A DNA stretch of 64,000 bases from a virus, in the IMG/VR virus record IMGVR_UViG_3300045988_117450, positions 28,684 through 92,683 of that record. One strand, 5' to 3'. The notes under the pieces were generated by a model. That model worked only from the letters and a program-made list of their open reading frames with translations. It was not told the origin of the DNA and did no database searches. This document shows positions 3,101 through 44,066 of this stretch, in pieces; the stretch's first letter is position 1; every line of letters starts with the position of its first letter. The position numbers were made by a program, and so were the translations under genes.

Positions 3101-6100
3101 TGAGGCAGTCTATAATTGATAAATTATATACAGGAAATGCTGATCTTCTTACTGCAAGGGAAAAAGATGTGTATGATAAACACAAACAAGATTTTGATGA
3201 TTATGTGTCGTCTTTAGGTGACAGTCCTATTAATCTCATAAAATCATTATCCGAAAGGGCTGATAGGCTTACAAGTCCAAGATCTGTGTATGAGGAAAAC
3301 AAGACCGTTATTGATATGGCTAAATCAAATTTGGAACCAGATCAAAGACAGGAACTTGATGATGCTATTTCTTCGTATGTGGATATAATGAACAGACGGG
3401 ACAAAGGGGAGAAAGTTGACGAAGATAAGCTTGCCGATTCGGTATTTACCATAGAAGATCTTGGCCAGGTTGGAAACATCACGGATCTTCTTCCTTATAT
3501 CGAACAAAACAGGATTATTGATAAAGGTCGTATCTCTGAATCTACGTTGAGTAATTTTGGGGAAGATGATGTTAATATAGATTCTCTTGTAAATGAATTA
3601 GACGAATCCGATAATACGCCGGGAGCCAACATAGATAGTGCCCAGAATCCAGAGACGTTGATGGTAAGAATAATATCCAATGATGGCAATGAAAGGTATG
3701 AAATTGCAGGTCTTAGAGCTGACAAATTTGTATCTTCGATAAAATCATTGGTTCCTATTCAAATAAGTTCTGAAACGAACGCTAATGGCACTAAAAGGTA
3801 TTCCCTTAACATAGGTGGAGAAACAGCTAATATAATGGAATTGCCTTATCATGCAAGATGGTCTATAGACAAAGAATCGGCTCGTGTTCTTAACCGTTAC
3901 ACAGATGTGTCTATTCAGGACGTGGGTAATTCATATTCTTTGGTTTATAAGCGTCTTGATTCAGACGAATTGGTTCCGTACAGAACAGGTGTTGGATTCG
4001 GAGAGAATGAAGTAGATAAAATAGATCAGGAAGCATTATCTTCTTTGAAGAAAGGAGATAAGGTTAATCTTGAGATAGATGTCAATGATACTTATAATCA
4101 GTCTCTTTTTACCGAATATGATAACGCTGTTCAGTCCGGAGATAGAAATAAAATAGAATCTGCCGAAAATAAGTTGGTATCCAATATGGTTATCAAGGTC
4201 ATGAGTGGAAACAGATTCGTTTCTGTTGTAAAAGCTGACACGGGTGGCATAGATGGTATAAGTAAAATAAGGAGAACGGCCTTTAATAAGTGGAAGAAGG
4301 ATGCTGGTCGGTCGGCCACCATCAACGTCGGCACACATGTTGTTGCCCAGACCCTTCCCGGAAGACCGGTGTTTAACATGAGAGTAAATGGACAAGGATA
4401 TGGACAAGTAGAGAATCTTCCTATTACCGAAAAAGGAGCTGAAAAAGTATCTGATGTGGGGTATGTCTTAAATGGCAAAGTCGTGCTTAAGAACGGTTCT
4501 AAATACACAGGATTCCCATTTGCTTATTCTATATTAAACGATAAGAAAAACAATTACAAAAATGTAAGAGTTCCGGTAGTTGTCATCAAAGGCAAAAACG
4601 GTCTTAATTATCTTTTCCCGGTTAGTCTACGTTCTGTGGAATCAGAGGAAGGAAAGAAATGGATTTCTTTTATAGATATGCTGCTTGAATCCGGTGACTC
4701 TGAATTGTTACAGATGGGTCAAGATGACATACAAGATCTTAATGCGTATCTAACCAAGTTAGGTCTTGATCCAGCTTCGTATCAAGTATCGTATTTGAAT
4801 CCTATTTCAGGGCTTAGAAAAGCTCGTGAGGCTATAGAAAAATTATCTATGGTTCCTGATGTTGTTAAGTGGGTAGAAGATGAAAGTAGGAGTGTGAAAG
4901 ACATTGTGACGTCTGAGGTAGAATCTGGAATAGATTTCGAAGGTGAGATGTTTGTTGCTCCTAAGATCAGGATTCAGTTTGGTAAATCATCTTCCGGACC
5001 TAAATCACTTATAGAAGATGATCTCCCTTTCTCCGATGAGGGTAAGACCGTTACTTCCAAGGAAGATGTGGATATTTACGAAGAGGAAATGCCAGAGGAA
5101 GACCCTGTCCGGGGGACTCGGCCGGCGCCACCAGCTCAGCCGGCTCCTGCGGCACAAGCTGCGCAGTCTTTACCTGGCAAGAAGCGTACCTCCAGGAAAA
5201 ACTTCTCTCTTATGTTAAACGAAATAGAATCTCATATAGAAAAAGAAGGATTGCCGCCTTATGCTAATATTTTTGATTTTATAGCAAGGAAGATTGTAGG
5301 AGGCGATTTGAGGTTTCTTCGTGAGAGAGGTAATCCAAAAAGTCTTAAGGAGGAAATGGGATTAGAACCTAAAGGAACAGTAGGTGATAAAATATCCACT
5401 CCTTCTAAAAAGGGAGGTAAGACCTTAGAAGAATATGTTTCTTGGCTTCGTTCTCAAACGGATCAGGTAGTAGCGGATTATGTTGGTCCAAGATCTGACG
5501 AACAAATTATATCAGAGTTGAAAAACTTTTTGAAATATATTAATTTTGTTCCAAGCAAGGCTTTGAATTATTCTCTTAGAGTCAATGGCATGGATACCCT
5601 AAAAGAATATGGCACAAAAGAGGAAGTAGAAAAAATGGAATCTGACATCAATAGTTTGGTTTCTGAAGTTTTGTCTACGGTGGATAACCAAACTGTAGAA
5701 GATGTTTCTACTGCAATAGAATCAAACAACTTGCCTGCCATATGGGGGCCCGTGGAAAGTCTTGATATGACAAACGAGGAAAAAATAGAGTTTTTGAATA
5801 ACGTAGCAGATTTCCTTAGTGGCATTCCAGAGTATGATGCTGTTGTGGAGTCTATAGAGTCAGAATCAGATAATATTTTAAATGATGGGAAAGAAGGAAG
5901 TGCAGAAGGCGGTGCAGTACGCACTGAGGAAGATGGCGATAAAAAGGGAGATGGAAAAAGCGAAGGACAACCCAGAGATGATGGCAAAGCTGAGGGAGAT
6001 GTCTATTTACCTGGATCTGAAGAAGGAAGAGTAGATAACTATAGGAAGAACGGAGATAAGTTCTCTGATATTGCCGAAGTTACTTTATGGTTACTTAGAA

Positions 6101-28462: not shown

Positions 28463-28696
28463 TTATTTAATTTTTACGATCTTAATGGAATCTCCTATAT
28501 TGTATTCCCCTTGGTGCCCAACGAATTTTATTAACCTATTACTGTGAGCTATTGAAACTCTTTCGTCTTCACCATAATACATTATACATCCACCACGTAA
28601 AGGTTTTAAATCGTATATAACCCATCCGTCATTAACTTGATTATCATATTTGCATGATGATAATACAAGTGTCATCAATAAAACAAAATATTTCAT
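28463..28696 (-). CDS. small lipoprotein (77 aa)
   Basis: Signal peptide with lipobox MKYFVLLMTLVLSS-C. Confidence 0.5.
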   Translation of the reverse strand: MKYFVLLMTLVLSSCKYDNQVNDGWVIYDLKPLRGGCIMYYGEDERVSIAHSNRLIKFVGHQGEYNIGDSIKIVKIK

Positions 28697-33610: not shown

Positions 33611-34176
33611 ATTTAACCAACAAAACCACCATACTTTAGTAGGTAGATGAATTGGTTTGATTAATTTTGAATCAAAATTACAGATAAAAAGGAGACTGTT
33701 TGAACTCCAACAAGCGTATCGTAAAATAAACGATCTTCGATCGGATTTTCAATGGGGATTAGCTCATCAGTTATGCAAACAGTATGATTATATTTTTATT
33801 GAAGATCTAAACATTGAAGGAATGAAACGTTTGTGGGGAAAGAAAGTTTCTGACCTCAGTCATTCTTCTTTTATTAACAAACTTACGTATGTTGCTTCAA
33901 AGTATGGAGTAACGATACACAAGATTGACAAATGGTATCCTTCTTCCAAAACTTGCGAATGCGGCTGCATTAATAAAGGACTGTCGTTACGCGACCGCAC
34001 GTGGGTATGCCCGGCGTGCGGTGCCATTAACGACCGTGATGTTCTTGCAGCCCGTAATATACTTCGGAAGGGCATTTCCGAATTGGAGAGCAAGAGTAAT
34101 TCCAGCGATAGTAATATCGGGGTTTCTTGCGCTTGTATCCAAGAATCCCATTTGCTTTAGCTATGGGAGTATGTCA
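33611..34176 (+). mobile_element. internally deleted (566 bp) derivative of the 7133-8370 IS200/IS605-type element, inverted relative to copy 1
   Basis: Left end ATTTAACCAACAAAACCACCAT... and right end ...GGGAGTATGTCA shared with copy 1. About 672 bp deleted between the first 11 codons and the RRRLFELQQ region; a few percent SNP divergence. TTATGAT directly upstream of the left end, as in copy 1. Confidence 0.75.
33657..34160 (+). pseudogene. tnpB: tnpB remnant (lacks RuvC-I and the REC/WED region; retains RuvC-II, zinc finger, RuvC-III and the 3' omega-RNA-encoding region)
   Basis: 167-aa ORF MINFESKLQIK|RRLFELQQAYRK...IFIEDLNIEGMKR...CECGCIN...CPACGAIN...DRDVLAARNI, collinear with the C-terminal 155 aa of the protein at 7149..8324. 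Confidence 0.7.
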
Positions 34177-36538
34177 ACCTATTATAATATTCGATAATCT
34201 TTTCTTTCCTATCTCCCGGTTTTACTGCCATATTCTCAGCCAAGAACCTAAAATACGACACCGGTATGTCTTTGAATCTAATTCCTTCATATTTTCCAAA
34301 CCACATTATTATGCTGTCAAGATCGTCCTCTCTCCTACCATCTCCATTTACGGATTTAAGCGAGGCTGCCCGGCGAAGGATCTCGTCTTTGGTAATAATA
34401 TCACCCATCCTTATATTGGACAGAAGTTGATCTCCGGCAAACATACACCAGCCTTTAGAAGGGAATTGTTCGATTGTCAAGTCTTCTATCCGACCGAAAC
34501 GCCTCATGTTGTCGCAGCAATCAACTATCAGTGCCTCTTTCTTGTCAGGATGGATGCGAACTGCACGGCCTACAATCTGGTAAAATACTGAATATGAGAA
34601 TGTTGGACGCCCAAACATCACACAGTCAAGTTCAGGAAAGTCAAATCCGGTAGCAAGCGTTGAATAATTAAAAACCACCTTCAACTTTCCTTCTTTGAAA
34701 TCGGATATAATTTGCTCTCTTTTCTTTTTGGTTGTTAGCGATGTTACGACACCGGTTATGGCTCCCATCCTGGCATTCATGAACTCTGATATTCTATTAC
34801 ATGATTCGATAGAATCCATACAGACCAAAATGGCTTTACGTTCGTTCATAAGTTGAAGAAGGCGCTTGTAGATAGAGTTGTTTAAGCCATTTCGTACAAT
34901 ACTTTCTTTAATAGATTCGTTGGTGTATTCAGCCCCGGTGCTGTTTAACATCAGAGCCGATTCATCAAACGACCATCGTTCGTACTTAAGTGGACACCAA
35001 AACCCTTGAGAAGTTAGTTCTTGTATCTGAGTCACATGAACTATTTTCTTGAAGAAGTTATGTTCGTCTTTCGTCAGCATATTGAGCTTGCTATAGTTTC
35101 CTTCCAGCATGGAACTGTAGGTTCGGAGGCGGCAGGGAGTGGCGGTGAATCCCAGCACCTTCGCCTCGGGAAACTCGCTCATAAACTCCATAAACTCAGA
35201 ACCTTCTTCAGGAGAATATCCTGAATGACAATTTCCAGAAACAAATGTATATCCTTTATATCTTAGTACTATACATCCAGATGGAACCTCTACGCAATAA
35301 ACTTGTCCGGTGTATTTTTCATATCGTTTATACATAGAGTTAGTGCCTCTTAGTTTTTTGTCTTTTGTTATAAAAAGCCTATAAACATCCGAATATGTTT
35401 CTTTTCTGCCATCCTTTTCAATAGAAACATAACATCCGTGGCCAGCTATTGTGGCTACAGAATTATAAAAATCCACCTGCGTTTTATCGGTCGATGAATA
35501 ATAAAGCATCGTATTCCCTATAATACTGCCGTCCCATAAAGAACACTCTTCTATTACCGATCTTGCTTTTTCGTAAGACATTGGGAATGATATATGATTT
35601 CGAATATCCTTTGTTGTAAACTTTGGCATTCTTACCATAAACCTTCTTCTGTTTTTCGTATTTCCTTCTTTTTCTATTTTTCCTTTAACTTCCCATATCT
35701 CAACGTTTGCATTCTTACATAAATAATGAATCCTTTTTATTTTTCTTTCTTTTGAAAATGAGAAAGATATAATTGTGTCATTTTCGTTTTTGTTATGAAT
35801 ACTTCCATCTGCTTGTGTTGCTATAAACAACCTCTCCATGTCAGATAAGGAATCGCCTTCGCTATCTACACGTGATATCCCTGATACCGGAATGCATTTC
35901 CCAGATTTAAAAGAAGCTTCAGATATTTTCTGTTTATACCATTTACCGTATTTCTTATCATAAAACAAGAAATCATGATTCTTTGTCACTGGAAGATCTA
36001 TTCCATGTTTAATATGAAGTAAACAAATGTCACCATCGTGCGGCTTGTTGATATATCTGATAGGCATCACAAAATCAATAAATCCTTTATCATATTGAGC
36101 TACCCTTACATTTTGTTCTAATTTATTAAATTGAACAAACCCTTTTTCGGTTAATATCTCCACATCTCCAGTAAAACATTCATCTATCAAGATCGTATCT
36201 ATCCCTATATCCTTCAACCTCGCTACATCTTTTTTTATGCTCTTTAATGTTGCATAAGTCATAGCCGACAGTTCCTTTATACCACATGAAGCAGAATATA
36301 TGGTAGGTTTAGAATCGAATGATACGGCCTTTGCATAATTCTGCTCCAGAATCTCTTTTGAGGGCTGTAATACTAATGTTGGTCTATTTATTTCATGTGC
36401 TATCTTGGATATCAGAAGGCTCTTTCCACATCCACATGGAGCTACGATTATGCCAGGCTTTTTAGATCTTCCTGTAAGAAACTTAAGCCCGGCATCTACC
36501 GCCTCTTTTTGGTAAGGTCTAAGTTCAAAGCCCATCAC
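34157..36538 (-). CDS. superfamily-2 DExH (DECH)-box helicase interrupted by a 316-aa intein. Precursor 793 aa, GTG start; mature ~477 aa.
   Basis: Motif I APCGCGKS, Ia LVLQP, II ILIDE|C...|CHSGY (DECH after splicing), III LGFTATP, VI QIVGRAVR. The last ~6 codons and the stop lie inside the IS copy 2 right end (34160-34176). Confidence 0.8.
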   Translation of the reverse strand: MMGFELRPYQKEAVDAGLKFLTGRSKKPGIIVAPCGCGKSLLISKIAHEINRPTLVLQPSKEILEQNYAKAVSFDSKPTIYSASCGIKELSAMTYATLKSIKKDVARLKDIGIDTILIDECFTGDVEILTEKGFVQFNKLEQNVRVAQYDKGFIDFVMPIRYINKPHDGDICLLHIKHGIDLPVTKNHDFLFYDKKYGKWYKQKISEASFKSGKCIPVSGISRVDSEGDSLSDMERLFIATQADGSIHNKNENDTIISFSFSKERKIKRIHYLCKNANVEIWEVKGKIEKEGNTKNRRRFMVRMPKFTTKDIRNHISFPMSYEKARSVIEECSLWDGSIIGNTMLYYSSTDKTQVDFYNSVATIAGHGCYVSIEKDGRKETYSDVYRLFITKDKKLRGTNSMYKRYEKYTGQVYCVEVPSGCIVLRYKGYTFVSGNCHSGYSPEEGSEFMEFMSEFPEAKVLGFTATPCRLRTYSSMLEGNYSKLNMLTKDEHNFFKKIVHVTQIQELTSQGFWCPLKYERWSFDESALMLNSTGAEYTNESIKESIVRNGLNNSIYKRLLQLMNERKAILVCMDSIESCNRISEFMNARMGAITGVVTSLTTKKKREQIISDFKEGKLKVVFNYSTLATGFDFPELDCVMFGRPTFSYSVFYQIVGRAVRIHPDKKEALIVDCCDNMRRFGRIEDLTIEQFPSKGWCMFAGDQLLSNIRMGDIITKDEILRRAASLKSVNGDGRREDDLDSIIMWFGKYEGIRFKDIPVSYFRFLAENMAVKPGDRKEKIIEYYNRLTYSHS
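35231..36178 (-). other. intein with a LAGLIDADG homing-endonuclease domain, inserted at helicase motif II
   Basis: N-terminal block A CFTGDVEIL (Cys1 = residue 121), block B VTKNHDFL (T.NH), LAGLIDADG-like LFIATQADGSI, C-terminal ...TFVSGN followed by +1 Cys (CHSGY); 948 bp in frame. Confidence 0.7.
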
Positions 36539-37398: not shown

Positions 37399-38418
37399 TC
37401 ATCGTTTTATCTTTTTAGACGGATCCCAATCCGAAGAGAAAGGGCATTCGTTTTTGTTATGTAATCCAAAGTCGCAATAATAACACAGTGCTGACGGGCA
37501 GGGTAGCTTGTTTTGCGAAACAGGCTGGCTTAGGGTGGCACGCCGCTTGCTATACCTGGCTCCTTCTGCTCCCTGGATGTACGCTTGAAATGATTTTACA
37601 CTATTATCTTCAAAATCATACATTTTAGACAAAGTGTCATTTAGCATCTCTATAGATTTTGTTTTACGTTCCTCATCCACCTTAACCTTTTGGTACTGCC
37701 TGGTCCTGGTAAAGAAATAGATGTTCATATCTGGAAGAACTCCACCATATCTTCTATAGATGTAAAATGAATATATAGGATGCTGTAAATTCGTTTCCAA
37801 CTTCTTAGAATCAAAAACCTTATTACCTGATTTCCAATCTATGACATAATGGTGAACTACGTTCTTGCTTTTTATAGCCAGATGAAGGTCTACCGATCCT
37901 ACTATGTACACATGAGTATGAATTACTCCATTTATGTTAACAGGCTTAGGAAGACGGTACGGCAGCACAAAATCTTCTTCGACTCCAACTATGGCGCCGT
38001 GTCTGATAAGTTTCTCACAGGGATTAAGATCACTATCAGCTATCATAAACCTATTCCCGTCTTTTTTAAACAGATCCACAATCCAAGCAAGAAGTTCTCC
38101 AGATTGTTTCATGGCTATCATCATATTTTCCGGTGATTGCCAAGGTATGTCTTCTTGGTAAGCATAGTAACTTATTGCTTCTCCAAGGTCTTTACCAGAA
38201 GGCTGTCTTCCGTTCTTGAAAAAGTATTCCAGTGTCTTATGAATAACCGTACCATAAGACGTAGCTTCTTGTTTTTCTGTAGACCTTTTACCTTCCACAT
38301 AAGTCTTATACCATTTCATTGGACAAGTAAGAAACGTATCTATCTGGGAATAAGATATGGCAAGACGTTTCACACCATTAAACTCCTTATATAGCAAATG
38401 CGTTTCTGGGACCATCAT
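37399..38418 (-). CDS. Cas4-like / RecB-family PD-(D/E)xK exonuclease with an Fe-S cysteine cluster (339 aa)
   Basis: Motif I with Cys SYSQIDTFLTCPMKWY, motif II IVGSVDL, motif III VIDWKSG (DYKTG-like), QhxxY QHPIYSFY, C-terminal CPSALCYYC...C. Contains GC-rich island 37488-37590. Confidence 0.65.
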   Translation of the reverse strand: MMVPETHLLYKEFNGVKRLAISYSQIDTFLTCPMKWYKTYVEGKRSTEKQEATSYGTVIHKTLEYFFKNGRQPSGKDLGEAISYYAYQEDIPWQSPENMMIAMKQSGELLAWIVDLFKKDGNRFMIADSDLNPCEKLIRHGAIVGVEEDFVLPYRLPKPVNINGVIHTHVYIVGSVDLHLAIKSKNVVHHYVIDWKSGNKVFDSKKLETNLQHPIYSFYIYRRYGGVLPDMNIYFFTRTRQYQKVKVDEERKTKSIEMLNDTLSKMYDFEDNSVKSFQAYIQGAEGARYSKRRATLSQPVSQNKLPCPSALCYYCDFGLHNKNECPFSSDWDPSKKIKR

Positions 38419-38774
38419 AAGCTATCGTCTTTAAATCCTTCCGGGTAATATACGACATACTTCTTACCATCTTCTGGTGTCATGGCGAACTGCATGTAGT
38501 TGTTACGATTACGATGTTTGCCATCCAATCCACGTTTCCAATACAGTATCCCGTCTATATCCACATAAGATCGGCCTCGGTCGGCTCTAACTACGTCCGT
38601 GTGCAGCAGATACCCGTCGGAAGACACGATCCACACTTTATCCCCTTTGTTTAAATAGGATATTCTTTTTCTTACAACAACCTTTTTCTTATTATCTAAT
38701 GCAAATTCCTCATCAGTCATACTCTTCATCCTCCTCTTCTTCTGTTTCAAAATCAATTCCATAACACTGATCAT
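38415..38774 (-). CDS. hypothetical protein (119 aa; internal Met may be the true start)
   Basis: ORF between the flotillin and nuclease genes. Confidence 0.4.
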   Translation of the reverse strand: MISVMELILKQKKRRMKSMTDEEFALDNKKKVVVRKRISYLNKGDKVWIVSSDGYLLHTDVVRADRGRSYVDIDGILYWKRGLDGKHRNRNNYMQFAMTPEDGKKYVVYYPEGFKDDSL

Positions 38775-38927
38775 AATGCTTGGTCAGTTCTTCTGGTTCT
38801 AAATCTTGTCCAAAATCCATGTTAAAAATATTGTAATTAGTAAAGCACTGTCCCTGCCGGCAGGAAATCTATAAATGCTGCTTTTGCTTCTTCAATTAGG
38901 CCCAAGTGTAACCTTGGGCCATTGTAT

Positions 38928-40628
38928 TTATTTTTTGTCATCTCCTTTTAACTTCTTTAAAGTATCTGCAATCGGAAGCTGATCAATGACTCCCAATGCC
39001 GGAGCAACGGCCTTAACAACATTGTTAAGGAAATTACCGGTGCTGTTCTGACCGCCGTCAAATACCGTGATATTTCCGAGATTGATGTGCTCGAACGCCT
39101 TAACCTGTTCTCCAGCAATTTCTTTCCACTGATTAACCATCTTGTACTGGATGGCGATCTGAGGATTGGATTCTGCTGCTTCCACCATAGCCTTAAATCC
39201 GTCGGCTTCTGCCATTAACGACTTTTTCTTACCTTCGGCTTCTGCCTCCAGCTTCATCTGAATAGCTTTTGCCTCTGCCTCAGCTTTTGCCAAATGTGCT
39301 GATGCCTCAGCCTCAGCCCGGCGTTTGATCTTCTCGGCCTCGGCATCAGCTTGCAAGATAGCCTCTTCCTTCTGGGTTTCAGCCGGCACAATCTTTTCAG
39401 CCTTAAGCGCAGCCTGAACTTTCTTAGCCTTAGCTTCTTCCACTTCTTTGTCTGCAAGCTCTTTTGCTGTTTTTACAGCCGCTTCCGATTTAACTTTTTC
39501 TTCTCCGGCCTTCTTTTCTGATTGAGCTTTGATAATCTGCAATTCTGATACTGACACAGCAACCTCCTTCTGGGCATTGTTGTATCCTATAGACGCATTT
39601 TTCTCAGCCTCAGCCTTCTTAATCTGAGCTTCAGAGTTTTGTATTGCTATAGCTGCTTCCTTGTCAGCTTCAGCCTTGTTCTTTCCGACTTCTTCCATCC
39701 TTTCAGCCTCGGCTTTATTTACTTCAAGTTCTGCCTTAGATCTTACGATCGCCGATTCCTTGTCGGTTAAAGTTTTTGCGATAACCGCAGCCCTATCTCT
39801 ATCTGCTTGAGCTACACCAATCTGTTTTTCTTTATCGGTTAAAGCCAAAGCTATTTCTTTTTCTTTCTTCGTTTCAGCTACTATTGTTTCCTTTTCTTTT
39901 TCAGTACAAGCAATTTGAATCTCTTGTTCTTTTTTGGTATTAGCCACAGCCGTTTCTTTCTCCTTCTGCTGTACAGCAATCTTAATAGCCCCCAGCTTCT
40001 CCTGTTCTTCGATATTAGCCTGTGCTTCGTTCAGAGCCCTACTTTCAGCCTCCTTACCAAGGTTCATAATATAACCGGCTTCGTCTCTAATGTCACTGAT
40101 GTTGATGTTCAGGAGGTAAAGACCTAACTTGTTAAGCTCGTTATCAATGTTCTTTCTTGCCTTATCCAAAAACTCATCCCTGTCAGAATTAAGTTTTTCG
40201 ATTGTCATTTCAGCAATAATCAAACGCATCTGACCGTAAACGATGTCCGTAATAAGATTTTCAGTAGATTCGGTATCCATTCCCAAAAGTCTTTCTGCCG
40301 CATTTTGCATGATCTCTGGATTTGTACTGATAGCTACTGTAATAGTCGTAGGAACATCTACTCTAATATTCTGAGATGACAAAGCACCGGTAAGCTTGCA
40401 ATCTATTTGCATAGGCTCCATTGACAAAACATCATAGCTTTGAATAATAGGCAAGACAAATGCCGCTCCACCATGATATAATTTCGCCGATTTCTTTTCC
40501 CCACCTGTCTTACCATAAACGACCAAGACCTGATTAGGCTTACATCTACGATACCTTGATAAGACTCCGATGATTGTCAAAATAATCACTACAGCTAAGA
40601 TAGCTGACACGTACATGATTGTTGTCAT
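38928..40628 (-). CDS. floT: flotillin-like SPFH (band-7) domain protein, FloT/YuaG/YqiK family (566 aa)
   Basis: N-terminal TM helix; SPFH core NQVLVVYGKTGG...YHGGAAFVLPIIQSYDVLSMEP...; long EA/AEAE-repeat coiled coil; C-terminal NITVFDGG. Close resemblance to B. subtilis FloT (GGGTFVLPVFQ, KITVVDTGG). Confidence 0.8.
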   Translation of the reverse strand: MTTIMYVSAILAVVIILTIIGVLSRYRRCKPNQVLVVYGKTGGEKKSAKLYHGGAAFVLPIIQSYDVLSMEPMQIDCKLTGALSSQNIRVDVPTTITVAISTNPEIMQNAAERLLGMDTESTENLITDIVYGQMRLIIAEMTIEKLNSDRDEFLDKARKNIDNELNKLGLYLLNINISDIRDEAGYIMNLGKEAESRALNEAQANIEEQEKLGAIKIAVQQKEKETAVANTKKEQEIQIACTEKEKETIVAETKKEKEIALALTDKEKQIGVAQADRDRAAVIAKTLTDKESAIVRSKAELEVNKAEAERMEEVGKNKAEADKEAAIAIQNSEAQIKKAEAEKNASIGYNNAQKEVAVSVSELQIIKAQSEKKAGEEKVKSEAAVKTAKELADKEVEEAKAKKVQAALKAEKIVPAETQKEEAILQADAEAEKIKRRAEAEASAHLAKAEAEAKAIQMKLEAEAEGKKKSLMAEADGFKAMVEAAESNPQIAIQYKMVNQWKEIAGEQVKAFEHINLGNITVFDGGQNSTGNFLNNVVKAVAPALGVIDQLPIADTLKKLKGDDKK

Positions 40629-40660
40629 AACTTTTAAAATTTAATTGTTGATAAAAAAAA

Positions 40661-41149
40661 TTAGATACTTAGTTCTCCTTCTTCGTATTTTATATTCACC
40701 TTGTCACCGTTTTTGTAAGTTTTTCCAGACAAGCATCTTACTCTCATTTGCTCCTGTCTTCCATTTTTCGAAATATTTACCATATAATGATTCTTACCTG
40801 ATCTAAATACTATCTCCACCTCTCTGCCATTTAAATCTTCCGGACATTCGTACACCATTTCTTGCTTTAACTTAAGAAGTAACTTATATACGTAAAACAA
40901 AACGATAAAGAAAAACGACCCTATCACAACCCCTACTAAATGGGAACCCGAAAAGTAGGTAGTCCAGCTATATCCAAGAATAAAATGTGTTATGCCCTTG
41001 AATGATATGATGTCCGACAAAGACATACTTAAATCAGAAGCATTGTCAATATCCGTATCCAGATCAGATCCTAATATCGACAACAAAAACTGTATAACAA
41101 AAGCAAATGATGCTATTAAAGCCATGCATAAAATTATATCATTTCCCAT
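40661..41149 (-). CDS. NfeD-like membrane protein (YuaF/YqiJ-type flotillin partner; 162 aa)
   Basis: 2-3 TM helices followed by a C-terminal beta-rich OB-like domain GREVEIVFRSGKNHYMVNISKNGRQEQMRVRCLSGKTYKNGDKVNIKYEEGE; directly upstream of and co-oriented with the flotillin gene. Confidence 0.5.
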   Translation of the reverse strand: MGNDIILCMALIASFAFVIQFLLSILGSDLDTDIDNASDLSMSLSDIISFKGITHFILGYSWTTYFSGSHLVGVVIGSFFFIVLFYVYKLLLKLKQEMVYECPEDLNGREVEIVFRSGKNHYMVNISKNGRQEQMRVRCLSGKTYKNGDKVNIKYEEGELSI

Positions 41150-41390
41150 GTCCTTCTGTTTTTATTTTGTAAACAAGATCAGTCATATCTTTGATGGTCT
41201 CCATATCATAATCAATAATAACAATATTGAATTTTTGTTCCACCATCATTTCAAGTTCAATTTGATCAAGAGAATCTAATCCAAGTTCTTTAAACGTCAC
41301 ATCTTCTTCGTGAACTATATCCATTTCTGAATTAAGAAACTGAGTAATAATTATATCCTCTATAATCTTTCTGATTTCTACTTTTTCCAT
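41139..41390 (-). CDS. acpP: acyl carrier protein-like (83 aa)
   Basis: Canonical phosphopantetheine-attachment motif LGLDSLDQIELEM (LGxDSLxxVEL) in a four-helix-sized acidic protein; overlaps the NfeD-like gene start by 11 nt. Confidence 0.7.
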   Translation of the reverse strand: MEKVEIRKIIEDIIITQFLNSEMDIVHEEDVTFKELGLDSLDQIELEMMVEQKFNIVIIDYDMETIKDMTDLVYKIKTEGHGK

Positions 41391-42091
41391 TGCTTTCTAA
41401 TTTTGTTAAATAAATACGTTTTTATGTTTTTCAATCGCTCTTTGTCTGTTTCAGAACTTCCGGTAAACAAATAATCCGGATTGCCTTTAGCTGGCGGCGT
41501 AGGCAATTTAGATACGGCAAACAACCAATCCATTTCCTTATTCTTCTTAGACTCCAAATAAGGCTCGGTAGCGATCTTAAATTTTTCAGCTATTAAGTCA
41601 AAGAGCTTTGAATTTTTAAGGTTCATATGAACTGAAAAAGCCTGAGAAGGCGGTTTCCATATGAAGTTACATAAGCTCATTGTGTAATCTCCTGACTCTG
41701 CTATATAAGATTCTGTTACCTGAAGTATGACCTCTTTCTTAAATGAGGTGTTACCCATAAACCAACACAATCTGGATTCCGCTTCTTTTCTGCTGACACC
41801 TATGTCTTTTGAATATGATTCGTACATTCCTATCATAATCTTCAACGTTTCCAGAACCTCGTCCGTCATTTCCGGTGTCTCTATATAATTCACAAAAGAC
41901 GTTCCTTTGTTGGTTAATCTCATCACGCCTGATTTTAATTTCTCAACCAGGCCAAGCTCTATATACCTCCCAGCATCTTCTTCCGGCATGGCTTCGATCA
42001 TAACCGAATCCTTCTGTCTTATGGCAAGAAGATTAGCGAGATCATTAGGAGTCATGTCTGATGCTGCAAGTTGTCTGAAATTGATGTACAT
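41378..42091 (-). CDS. hypothetical protein (237 aa)
   Basis: ORF overlapping the ACP start, same operon. Confidence 0.5.
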   Translation of the reverse strand: MYINFRQLAASDMTPNDLANLLAIRQKDSVMIEAMPEEDAGRYIELGLVEKLKSGVMRLTNKGTSFVNYIETPEMTDEVLETLKIMIGMYESYSKDIGVSRKEAESRLCWFMGNTSFKKEVILQVTESYIAESGDYTMSLCNFIWKPPSQAFSVHMNLKNSKLFDLIAEKFKIATEPYLESKKNKEMDWLFAVSKLPTPPAKGNPDYLFTGSSETDKERLKNIKTYLFNKIRKQWKK

Positions 42092-42315: not shown

Positions 42316-43071
42316 TTAACTGTTGTATCCTTCTTTGATAATCGAATTTCTACCGGTAGATACCGACTGTCGAAGATCGTCATGTACAGAATCTACCGTA
42401 GAATACTTGTTTCTGGTTGTAAAAATCACTTCCAGCATCTCCTTGTAATCACCTAAAGCCACTTCGTATCTTGGATCCACTTTGGCTTTTCTTTCAGCCT
42501 CGGCATTACTTTTAGCCAGCTCTCGGTCGAGAAGATCTTCTTTGATTCGGTCAGCAATCATATCAAGCTCTTTTTTGATTACTTCGCCGGCTGCCCGAAG
42601 TTGACCTTCTACGTCACCAAGCTGATCTTGGACGGTTCCTATTTCTTTCTTTAAACGATCGTATTCGTTAATCATACCCATATCACCTGCATAGCCGGAA
42701 AAGTCCTTGATTATTCTGGTTCCTTCTTTAAGGAGCTCAATAACTCGTCTTTTGCGTTCTCTGCTTATTAAAGACGGAAGACGATAATTCATATCCGCCA
42801 CCGCCTTGTCGTGTATGGAGTTGATTAAAAACATCTCTCTTTCATCCCCTGCGAACTCAGTAAGAACCAAAAGGAACTTACTTATCAGGTATTCGTTTTC
42901 TTCTATGGTAAGTCTCATACGTTTCTTTTTTTTTAATATACTGACTGTTCTTCCTTTACCTCTTGTTCTTGATCTTGATTGTTCGTAACGTCTTCCACAG
43001 TATAGAGCTTGGGCGGCGTCGGCGGCTGGTTGGGGTTCACGAACTTCGTCCCTCCCTCCCCGTACATCCAT
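42316..43071 (-). CDS. hypothetical coiled-coil protein (true start probably the internal Met giving MRLTIEENEY..., ~200 aa)
   Basis: The N-terminal 51 codons of the track ORF overlap the DnaB-like gene and cross GC-rich island 43018-43108. Confidence 0.45.
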   Translation of the reverse strand: MDVRGGRDEVREPQPAADAAQALYCGRRYEQSRSRTRGKGRTVSILKKKKRMRLTIEENEYLISKFLLVLTEFAGDEREMFLINSIHDKAVADMNYRLPSLISRERKRRVIELLKEGTRIIKDFSGYAGDMGMINEYDRLKKEIGTVQDQLGDVEGQLRAAGEVIKKELDMIADRIKEDLLDRELAKSNAEAERKAKVDPRYEVALGDYKEMLEVIFTTRNKYSTVDSVHDDLRQSVSTGRNSIIKEGYNS

Positions 43072-44066
43072 CCATGCCCCGGCAGGATCTCTGGGTGGAT
43101 TGTATTAGTAAGCTCTTCCATACTAACTTGCCTTACCTTCAGTATATGATGAAACACCAGTCCGGCTGTCCTGAATGATGTTTTGTTTTCAGTTTTAAAC
43201 CGGTCAAGAGTCTGATACCAGTCTTTCCCAAATATCATATACTTATCCAGTCCGTATCTGCGAGGATTATGCAAGCCTATCATTAACGTACATAGTTGCC
43301 CCAGCGTATCAGACTGATAAAAGTCAGAAAGACGGGGAGGCTGCTCTTGAGGGCTTTTTATCCTTCCTTCTATCTCTCTGTTGAATTGGGATATGATGAG
43401 GAAAAATATGTTTTTATACACTAATTTGGCTTCGTTCATAACCGCCACCAAATCATCTATAGCCGACTTAGGATCTAACCCCATTCTTTTTATCAAAGCA
43501 ATATGATCGACTTTAAATATTATAAGACGTTTGTCCTTGTGTCTGGTAGCTATATGATACACAGCCGCCTCAAACTCTTTTACCGTACACGGAGCGTCGA
43601 TGTATATTATATTATTTCTGATTTCACCTTGAAGGATTTCAAACATCCTCATCTCTTCTACTGTATTAGAATCTTGCCTTCTTAATATTTCAGGAGCCCG
43701 TTTTTTCATATCCTGGCTCATTCTACGAAGAAGAAGATCTTGAGGATTCATTTCGAACTCGCAATTGACAAGAAAATAATCTTCTGCCTGCGGGTTGATC
43801 ATCGGATTCATCACATTTTCCAATATCTTTTGGGCCACATACGATTTACCCACAGATGGCCGAGCTCCTATGGCAATAGCATGCTGAGGGAAAATACCTC
43901 CAAGCAAAGCCTCGTCAATATAATCGTATCCGGTTTTAGCGGGGATAAGTTCTCCCCGCCTGTATTTTAAGATATTCTCATACGCCTCTTCCATAACCTG
44001 TTTAGAGGTCTTGAATATCCTTCTTATATCTATCCTATTTGCTATCTCCTCTTGCATTTTTGTCAC
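42933..44066 (-). CDS. DnaB-like replicative helicase, RecA-fold C-terminal domain (377 aa)
   Basis: Walker A GARPSVGKSY, Walker B-like LIIFKVDH, DnaB-C-like arrangement. Confidence 0.6.
   Translation of the reverse strand: MTKMQEEIANRIDIRRIFKTSKQVMEEAYENILKYRRGELIPAKTGYDYIDEALLGGIFPQHAIAIGARPSVGKSYVAQKILENVMNPMINPQAEDYFLVNCEFEMNPQDLLLRRMSQDMKKRAPEILRRQDSNTVEEMRMFEILQGEIRNNIIYIDAPCTVKEFEAAVYHIATRHKDKRLIIFKVDHIALIKRMGLDPKSAIDDLVAVMNEAKLVYKNIFFLIISQFNREIEGRIKSPQEQPPRLSDFYQSDTLGQLCTLMIGLHNPRRYGLDKYMIFGKDWYQTLDRFKTENKTSFRTAGLVFHHILKVRQVSMEELTNTIHPEILPGHGWMYGEGGTKFVNPNQPPTPPKLYTVEDVTNNQDQEQEVKEEQSVY

Follow-up and report, generated by a model that had tools for sequence, protein, structure and literature searches.

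The window analyzed here, a stretch of 64,000 nucleotides from IMG/VR virus record IMGVR_UViG_3300045988_117450 (positions 28,684 to 92,683), carries three neighboring minus-strand genes that encode an acyl carrier protein (ACP), a small NfeD-like membrane protein, and a flotillin. The latter two genes constitute a complete host nfeD-flotillin operon residing in an abundant gut phage of the crAss type. Homology to chromosomal genes shows that an ancestor of the phage clade took this two-gene operon from a Bacteroidales host as one unit, and we hold the identity of the genes and the origin of the pair with high confidence. The capture had gone unrecognized in an earlier note on the same DNA, which was written from the sequence alone. 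Beyond the presence of the operon itself, what is new is that the middle gene can be assigned to the NfeD type, that the ACP can be set apart from the pair, and that the flotillin gene shows a presence/absence polymorphism. The individual parts are ordinary members of known families whose genes have been named in GenBank and by the Joint Genome Institute (JGI), and no new kind of molecular system is involved.

The phage origin of the DNA is apparent from its similarity to a complete viral genome. Within the window, positions 34-46 kb are 95% identical and positions 1-25 kb are 91% identical to the 151-kb genome of phage csAssE-Sib (OR575929.1) from the human gut, whose annotation lists terminase, portal, major capsid, ring, muzzle, and adaptor proteins, a diversity-generating retroelement (DGR), and BACON-domain proteins. 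The earlier supposition that the contig is phage DNA rather than host chromosome is borne out by this match to a genome encoding virion and packaging genes. On the same comparison, we place the source in the csAssE-Sib species complex, an abundant human-gut phage with a genome of ~150 kb that is crAss-type by gene set. The same arrangement recurs in the complete genome on deposit, and several sources supply >100 further independent contigs with it, the longest reaching 155 kb. Host contamination was rejected as the origin of the flotillin gene because its identity to host genes does not exceed 67%. The earlier note was unaware of any description of such a module in phages, and our literature search found nothing mentioning csAssE-Sib, a phage nfeD-floT module, or flotillin in crAss-like phages. 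That claim of novelty nevertheless needs narrowing: the csAssE-Sib GenBank record already names the three products (flotillin family protein, transmembrane protein, and acyl carrier protein), the JGI annotation also names the flotillin, and a flotillin has been annotated in Vibrio phage KIT04.

The 566-residue flotillin matches the Pfam families Band_7 (PF01145; E=7.6e-26, 91.7 bits versus a cut-off of 23.6, residues 30-211) and Flot (PF15975; E=2.6e-9, 37.7 bits versus a cut-off of 27, residues 450-559). The transmembrane (TM) anchor and the EA-rich coiled coil that the earlier note had described around the SPFH core can be read directly from the sequence. By these annotations, the protein retains all parts of a working flotillin, namely the anchor, SPFH domain, coiled coil, and C-terminal oligomerization domain. 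We regard it as a member of the flotillin family and not as a FloT equivalog, judging from its score against NCBIfam NF058507 (B. subtilis type; 145.6 bits versus a cut-off of 700), a threshold under which the flotillin of the host P. vulgatus also falls (141 bits). Comparison of the two phage lineages in which the locus occurs identifies flotillin as the best conserved protein of the block, with 82% amino acid identity (dN, the nonsynonymous divergence, of 0.12) relative to 78% for DnaB (dN 0.155), 64% for the NfeD-like partner, and 41% for the ACP. With all of its domains kept, the protein is evidently under purifying selection wherever the gene is present.

Natural variants of the flotillin span ~408-594 residues owing to in-frame insertions and deletions within the coiled coil (39282-39995; proteins P0049-P0168). 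Of 48 distinct length changes, multiples of 11 residues account for 15, against ~4.4 expected, and multiples of 7 for 6, against ~6.9 expected. The sequences thus suggest a hendecad-repeat wall of variable height, although some of the large deletions may be short-read assembly artefacts.

The designation of the 162-residue middle protein as an NfeD-type membrane protein is based on predicted fold, domain layout, gene order, and homology with the flotillin partner of the host; it does not extend to the Pfam profile for the family (PF01957). The protein also has no PHROG match, and profiles of 6 or 29 sequences retrieved no PDB sequence. Its database homologues are all close relatives within the same phage clade, and one Xylanibacter orthologue is labeled "NfeD family protein" by NCBI. 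An AlphaFold model built from a 29-sequence alignment of phage and host proteins (predicted local distance difference test, pLDDT, of 81) features helices at residues 2-29, 44-67, and 70-97 followed by beta strands at 110-161, with the beta domain modeled at a pLDDT of ~88-90. A Foldseek search of the PDB with this model gave NfeD structures as the best fold matches, the top one being full-length E. coli YbbJ (PDB 8z5g; 131 aligned columns, probability 0.91, E=0.025, 9% identity), and the modeled beta domain has the OB-like fold of NfeD. NfeD2 proteins, such as YuaF and YqiJ, share almost no sequence similarity with canonical NfeD and are recognized by a common layout and operon position (PMC2636767). 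They were defined by Hinderhofer in 2009 as proteins of ~140-175 residues in which a short linker joins three hydrophobic stretches at the N terminus to a soluble, all-beta domain at the C terminus (PMC2636767), which is the size and layout predicted for the phage protein. Because its layout, fold, and gene position agree with its orthology to the host partner, we assign the 162-residue protein as an NfeD2-type flotillin partner that lies outside the Pfam definition.

The host counterparts of the pair are chromosomal. Flotillins from 80 Bacteroides, Parabacteroides, Phocaeicola, and Prevotella genomes are 62-67% identical to the phage protein over the full length. In 64 host loci, a three-TM protein of 165-177 residues is encoded directly upstream of flotillin, the same nfeD-floT pairing that had been recognized in the phage. 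The phage NfeD-like protein is 35% identical over its whole length to the partner from B. xylanisolvens (E=2e-29) and 35-42% identical to the host partners overall. Since the flotillin and its adjacent upstream partner both resemble host genes at these levels, the two were captured together, and by sequence the capture looks recent. Bacteroidales operons, such as those of B. xylanisolvens XB1A (L028) and Phocaeicola vulgatus (L057), likewise have the partner gene ahead of the flotillin gene, with a short spacer between them. Their partner proteins have the same three-TM plus beta-domain layout and share the motifs IQF.LS, D.D.D, and SFKG..HF with the phage protein, and the flotillins have the anchor and SPFH domain in common along with a nearly identical C-terminal region. 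The phage version differs in that the pair sits in a replication operon behind an ACP gene, the flotillin bears 22 and 11 additional coiled-coil residues and is missing the charged C-terminal tail of the host protein, and the partner has diverged far more than the flotillin did. Moreover, the presence of flotillin is polymorphic in the phage, unlike in the Bacteroidales operon. Within IMG/VR, this flotillin type is restricted to the phage clade save for a 25-kb contig, probably host DNA, with 94% identity to Bacteroides. Gene order in the sister phage lineage is identical, orf237-ACP-NfeD-flotillin-...-PD-(D/E)XK, orf237 being a conserved gene upstream of the ACP gene. The simplest history is one capture in the common ancestor of the two lineages.

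The distribution of the three genes among related phages was surveyed in 108 deduplicated complete loci, which were sampled by anchoring on orf237 rather than on flotillin and therefore constitute an unbiased sample of the species complex; 7 kb were examined on either side of each locus. Such a survey had been put forward as a check on the triad, which proved intact in 77 of the loci (71%), with flotillin absent or partial in the remainder. Specifically, 21 loci (19%) encode the ACP and a full-length NfeD-like protein with flotillin wholly absent, and 10 contain other partial alleles. Thus, ~29% of related natural phage genomes, including contigs of ~140 kb, are without an intact flotillin, and loss of the NfeD-like gene or the ACP is rare. 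In the allele from which flotillin is cleanly deleted, 56-58 nt separate the NfeD-like stop codon from the next gene, orf119, and a hairpin that follows the flotillin stop codon in the window (38899-38920) has been lost along with the gene. Another flotillin-less allele bears an extra insert of ~375 nt. Remnant alleles retain flotillin residues 1-26, 1-50, 1-233, or 445-566, and a further allele is an in-frame NfeD::flotillin fusion at GGTGGA microhomology (L168 6001-6591). Genomes without an intact flotillin are scattered over neighbor-joining trees of both flanks, with 24-26 changes by Fitch parsimony for 28 non-intact tips, and therefore indicate recurrent deletion, spread by recombination, or both. 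In a distant relative (L252), an unrelated 141-residue open reading frame (ORF) lies between orf237 and the orf119 homologue, and the ACP, NfeD-like, and flotillin genes are all absent; L252 alone represents the distant relatives, as IMG/VR otherwise returned mostly the same species complex and a search with protein P0293 by itself gave no match. Because flotillin is absent in many genomes and in L252, it is an accessory gene in a variable slot. It is dispensable to the phage, an optional accessory and not core phage machinery.

Two features of the variant alleles are recorded separately. In several metagenomic variants (P0017, P0025, P0028, P0034; L168), the N-terminal TM part of the NfeD-like protein is fused in frame to the last 60-110 residues of flotillin, with at least 4 different junctions. 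The ~375-nt insert of some flotillin-less genomes (L192 8496-8740; L185, L194), which lies where the orf119 homologue begins and corresponds to window position ~38760, proved to be a HEARO RNA (Rfam RF02033; 94.1 bits versus a gathering score of 83, E=6e-20). This RNA is associated with IS200/IS605-type elements, and TnpB/OrfB_IS605 genes occur elsewhere in these phages.

The first gene of the triad was correctly described as encoding an ACP with an intact LGLDSLDQIEL site. The protein scores above the cut-off for Pfam PP-binding (PF00550; 27.7 versus 20.8 bits) and matches phrog_5934, "acyl carrier protein" (E=3e-11). In alignments with solved type-II ACPs (E=5e-7), LGLDSLDQIEL pairs with LGADSLDLVEL. 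The LG.DSLD motif, including the DSL serine, is invariant across both phage lineages, which makes a carrier function plausible. We call the protein divergent because it falls under every NCBIfam ACP equivalog cut-off (best models, 36-39 bits versus 70-92), and thus it is not a housekeeping AcpP equivalog. No phosphopantetheinyl transferase, acyltransferase, or Fab/fatty-acid gene is annotated in the 151-kb csAssE-Sib genome, most genes of which are labeled "hypothetical," and the host flotillin operon does not contain an ACP gene. Nothing beyond adjacency and translational coupling links the ACP to the flotillin pair, and it is most likely an independent accessory gene relying on host enzymes. 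Other phage ACPs (phrog_5934; g153 of Yersinia jumbo phage fHe-Yen9-04) are likewise small acidic PP-binding proteins with a DSL serine and are classed as auxiliary or host-takeover genes. The ACP of the window differs from these in being at best 45% identical over 49 residues, in having very few phage homologues, with only 5 records, and in having no acyl enzymes annotated alongside it.

The earlier description of three co-oriented, overlapping genes on the minus strand is accurate in coordinates and strand (Table 1), but only the ACP and NfeD-like genes overlap (11 nt), and a spacer of 32 nt separates the NfeD-like gene from flotillin. Upstream, orf237 overlaps the ACP gene by 13 nt. The flanking genes are as had been described: a DnaB-like helicase (42933-44066), a PD-(D/E)XK nuclease (37399-38418), and an SF2 helicase (34157-36538), as judged by Pfam and PHROGs. 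The orf237 family, which is widespread among phages, has 117 representatives in a representative search and matches phrog_32643, a PHROG of unknown function; a profile search of the PDB gave weak winged-helix hints alone (E ~0.05). On these results, which include an exhaustive search of representatives, we rejected the candidate view of orf237 as an acyl enzyme tying the ACP to chemistry. The gene is present in L252, as is an orf119 homologue, and lies outside the captured module. The hairpin downstream of flotillin has no coding-strand T-run, and terminator-like structures in the region are at the number expected by chance (7 versus 5.6 +/- 1.9). A scan of the region for promoters and terminators likewise remained at chance level with none significant, Bacteroidales-type promoters being outside the coverage of the tool.

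Table 1. Positions in the window of the three genes, their domains, and the edges of the variable slot.
Feature	Position	Strand	Basis or remark
orf237, upstream edge of variable slot	41378-42091	minus	conserved replication-module gene, function unknown
ACP gene, 83 aa	41139-41390	minus	ORF, as in the earlier note
ACP Ser40 of LGLDSLD	41271-41273	minus	aligns with modified serine in solved ACPs
NfeD-like membrane protein gene, 162 aa	40661-41149	minus	ORF, as in the earlier note
NfeD-like three TM helices, aa 2-97	40859-41146	minus	AlphaFold model
NfeD-like C-terminal OB-like beta domain, aa 110-161	40667-40822	minus	AlphaFold model
Flotillin gene, 566 aa	38928-40628	minus	ORF, as in the earlier note
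Flotillin TM anchor, aa 5-24	40557-40616	minus	hydrophobic, then RYRRCK (read directly from sequence)
Flotillin SPFH domain, aa 30-211	39996-40541	minus	Pfam Band_7
Flotillin coiled coil, aa 212-449	39282-39995	minus	21% A, 17% E, 17% K (read directly from sequence)
Phage-specific 22-residue coiled-coil insertion, aa 242-263	39840-39905	minus	alignment with host flotillins
Phage-specific 11-residue coiled-coil insertion, aa 308-318	39675-39707	minus	alignment with host flotillins
Flotillin Flot C-terminal domain, aa 450-559	38952-39281	minus	Pfam Flot
8-bp GC-rich perfect hairpin, GGCCCAAG-loop-CTTGGGCC	38899-38920	.	7 nt past flotillin stop codon
orf119, downstream edge of variable slot	38415-38774	minus	directly after NfeD-like gene in flotillin-less genomes

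Several neighboring features merit mention in their own right. A listed ORF of 251 residues (42316-43071) shares 139 nt with the 3' end of the DnaB-like gene, and since gene calls in related contigs give a 200-residue product, its real start is probably an internal ATG. The SF2 helicase contains a 316-residue in-frame insertion (residues 121-436, window positions 35231-36178, minus strand) that splits motif II exactly (LIDE|CFTGDVEIL...VSGN|CHSG). The orthologue in csAssE-Sib does not have this insertion and is 97% identical elsewhere. The first Cys, last Asn, and +1 Cys of the insertion are intein hallmarks, and it matches phrog_12229 and phrog_32482, PHROGs typically containing inteins, with no Pfam match. 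In OR575929.1, the annotation lists a sliding clamp, primase, helicases, and a "DNA replication factor" with no DNA polymerase catalytic subunit; two TnpB genes are carried along with the DGR cassette.

As for what the captured genes do, the best explanation overall, which we consider moderately probable, is that they make up an accessory module of host origin, useful under certain conditions but not needed for replication, which assembles SPFH/NfeD structures within the infected cell's inner membrane. In methicillin-resistant Staphylococcus aureus, nfeD is the first gene and flotillin the second, and the OB-like domain of NfeD binds the flotillin coiled coil and stabilizes oligomers, an interaction shown for S. 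aureus NfeD-FloA; the NfeD-flotillin complex serves as an ATP-independent stabilizer of unfolded membrane proteins (PMC11222466). SPFH proteins assemble into cages attached to the membrane (PMC12478178; PMC13000311). In the proposed mechanism, the ACP, NfeD-like protein, and flotillin would be co-expressed with the replication genes, and the phage flotillin would enter the host inner membrane via its N-terminal anchor and form SPFH-type assemblies by oligomerizing via the coiled coil and C-terminal domain. Its NfeD-type partner may then dock its OB-like domain onto the flotillin coiled coil and stabilize the oligomer. Such an assembly could supplement or replace the host flotillin system and keep membrane-protein complexes and membrane integrity working during infection, via the holdase and microdomain function reported for bacterial FloA-NfeD. 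The benefit would depend on conditions, from which a presence/absence polymorphism would be expected. For the physiological role as such, we tentatively suggest accessory upkeep or remodeling of the infected cell's membrane that is useful under some conditions only, a role favored because the reported function of bacterial NfeD-flotillin systems is the closest precedent.

A number of observations weigh against this explanation. The host already owns a flotillin pair, leaving the need for a second copy unexplained. Flotillin-less genomes retain an intact NfeD-like gene, which suggests that this protein can act independently of its phage partner, for instance on the flotillin of the host. Relative to the host protein, the phage flotillin has 33 more coiled-coil residues and is missing the C-terminal tail, changes that could mean a modified function rather than a simple back-up. 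The NfeD-like protein gives no Pfam match (including PF01957) and no NCBIfam match at E<=10, PF01957 at this threshold being empty also for five phage homologues and two host partners. Synonymous divergence (dS) between the lineages is saturated, which renders dN/dS unreliable, and a flotillin relocated beyond the 7-kb flanks would escape the survey and be counted among the flotillin-less genomes.

Superinfection exclusion, defense, or counter-defense would account for part of the same evidence. The assembly would block the entry of rival phage DNA or modulate a host membrane protease or defense and would be useful in some hosts or communities. The presence/absence polymorphism, with many independent alleles over genetic backgrounds, is in keeping with such a role, as are the membrane location and the position in a variable slot, which in a relative is occupied by an unrelated ORF. 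The SPFH family also supplies a precedent, as HflK/C-FtsH acts on lambda CII. The flotillin, however, is strongly conserved, with no diversification, and is 62-67% identical to a host housekeeping gene; PADLOC models gave no match for six proteins of the locus; and the pair is packed tightly with replication genes, with no significant promoter or terminator signal found, instead of forming a stand-alone moron. We accordingly regard this explanation as unlikely, although it deserves consideration.

Interference with the host flotillin strikes us as quite unlikely. Here, the phage proteins would co-assemble with or titrate host flotillin and NfeD, rewiring or disabling microdomains, and the NfeD-like protein would be the main effector with phage flotillin as an optional enhancer. 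The NfeD-like gene is intact in the 21 genomes without phage flotillin and thus its product probably partners something else; host flotillin is a core Bacteroidales gene. The SPFH and C-terminal oligomerization regions of the phage flotillin are near-identical to those of the host, the coiled coil being altered by +22/+11 residues and the tail lost, and NfeD is reported to bind the flotillin coiled coil (PMC11222466). On the other hand, identity of only 35-42% to the host partners might weaken binding of the NfeD-like protein to host flotillin, and pure inhibition would not obviously need every flotillin domain to be conserved. A further proposal, to which we likewise give little credence, is that the flotillin/NfeD pair with its longer coiled coil forms a phage-specific membrane compartment, separate from that of the host, for viral purposes such as replication or assembly anchoring, lysis timing, or rival exclusion. 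The ACP acyl group would tune the lipid or protein content of this compartment, and flotillin-less variants would represent an alternative infection strategy rather than mere loss of the gene.

The earlier note had itself proposed a scaffold for membrane-associated replication or ejection complexes, possibly with ACP-dependent lipid modification; assembly complexes are considered here along with these. The genes are indeed embedded in and co-oriented with the replication-gene block, the ACP gene is translationally coupled to the NfeD-like gene through their overlap, and all three genes are jointly absent from L252. A scaffold is nonetheless hard to reconcile with the loss of flotillin in over a quarter of the same species complex (~29%) and with its absence, along with the other two genes, from L252, which has the same replication genes. 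As for lipid modification, the host operon is without an ACP and acyl enzymes are not annotated in the phage; the ACP is fast-evolving (41% identity between lineages) and persists where flotillin has been lost; and orf237 shows no link to acyl chemistry. We therefore view both components of this proposal as improbable. Finally, it is highly improbable that the locus is an artefact or a passenger, whether through host contamination, chimeric assembly, or decay of an insert that has no function, since the frequent deletions readable as decay, and the large coiled-coil length variants that are perhaps partly short-read artefacts, are outweighed by the recurrence of the arrangement in a complete genome and >100 independent contigs, by intact ORFs, and by a flotillin that is the best conserved protein of the block yet only 62-67% identical to the host.

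Under the favored explanation of a host-derived accessory membrane module, the locus adds a membrane-organization function to the host-derived auxiliary genes of crAss-like phages. The function of bacterial flotillins is, to our knowledge, debated, and we know of nothing reported on flotillins in Bacteroidales. The natural flotillin knock-outs (~1 genome in 4) offer a ready-made comparison of flotillin-plus and flotillin-minus phages for the role of flotillin in the infected cell, and the coiled-coil length changes in multiples of 11 hint at a tunable assembly size.

Phage-encoded SPFH membrane proteins have precedents in the flotillin of the T5-like Vibrio phage KIT04 and in the SPFH lipoproteins of N4-like phages (phrog_200; phage GIB1) (PMC13239085). 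The KIT04 flotillin is only ~30% identical to that of the window, and its upstream partner, 82 residues long, is made of TM segments alone and lacks a beta domain; the match of phrog_200 to the flotillin of the window is weak (E=0.0011). Neither KIT04 nor the N4-like phages have a host-type NfeD partner or an adjacent ACP. The KIT04 upstream protein (KIT04_049; L082 3680-3928), from a cultured phage, consists of TM segments and an acidic loop, has no Pfam match, and precedes the 473-residue flotillin at 3929-5350; it may be a truncated NfeD/YqiJ-like partner. Virome scaffolds labeled "UNVERIFIED Bacteriophage sp." also contain flotillin-like genes and were not used as evidence, their viral origin being uncertain. 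Also comparable is the E. coli QmcA-YbbJ SPFH-NfeD cage (PDB 8z5g), in that YbbJ heads the Foldseek matches of the modeled 162-residue phage protein. QmcA, however, is a stomatin-type (SPFH1) protein and not a flotillin, and the YbbJ match is limited to E=0.025 and 9% identity. Relative to the bacterial pairs yuaF-floT (B. subtilis), yqiJ-yqiK (E. coli), and nfeD-floA (S. aureus), the phage pair is distinguished by a partner whose similarity is undetectable by HMMER and by its viral context.

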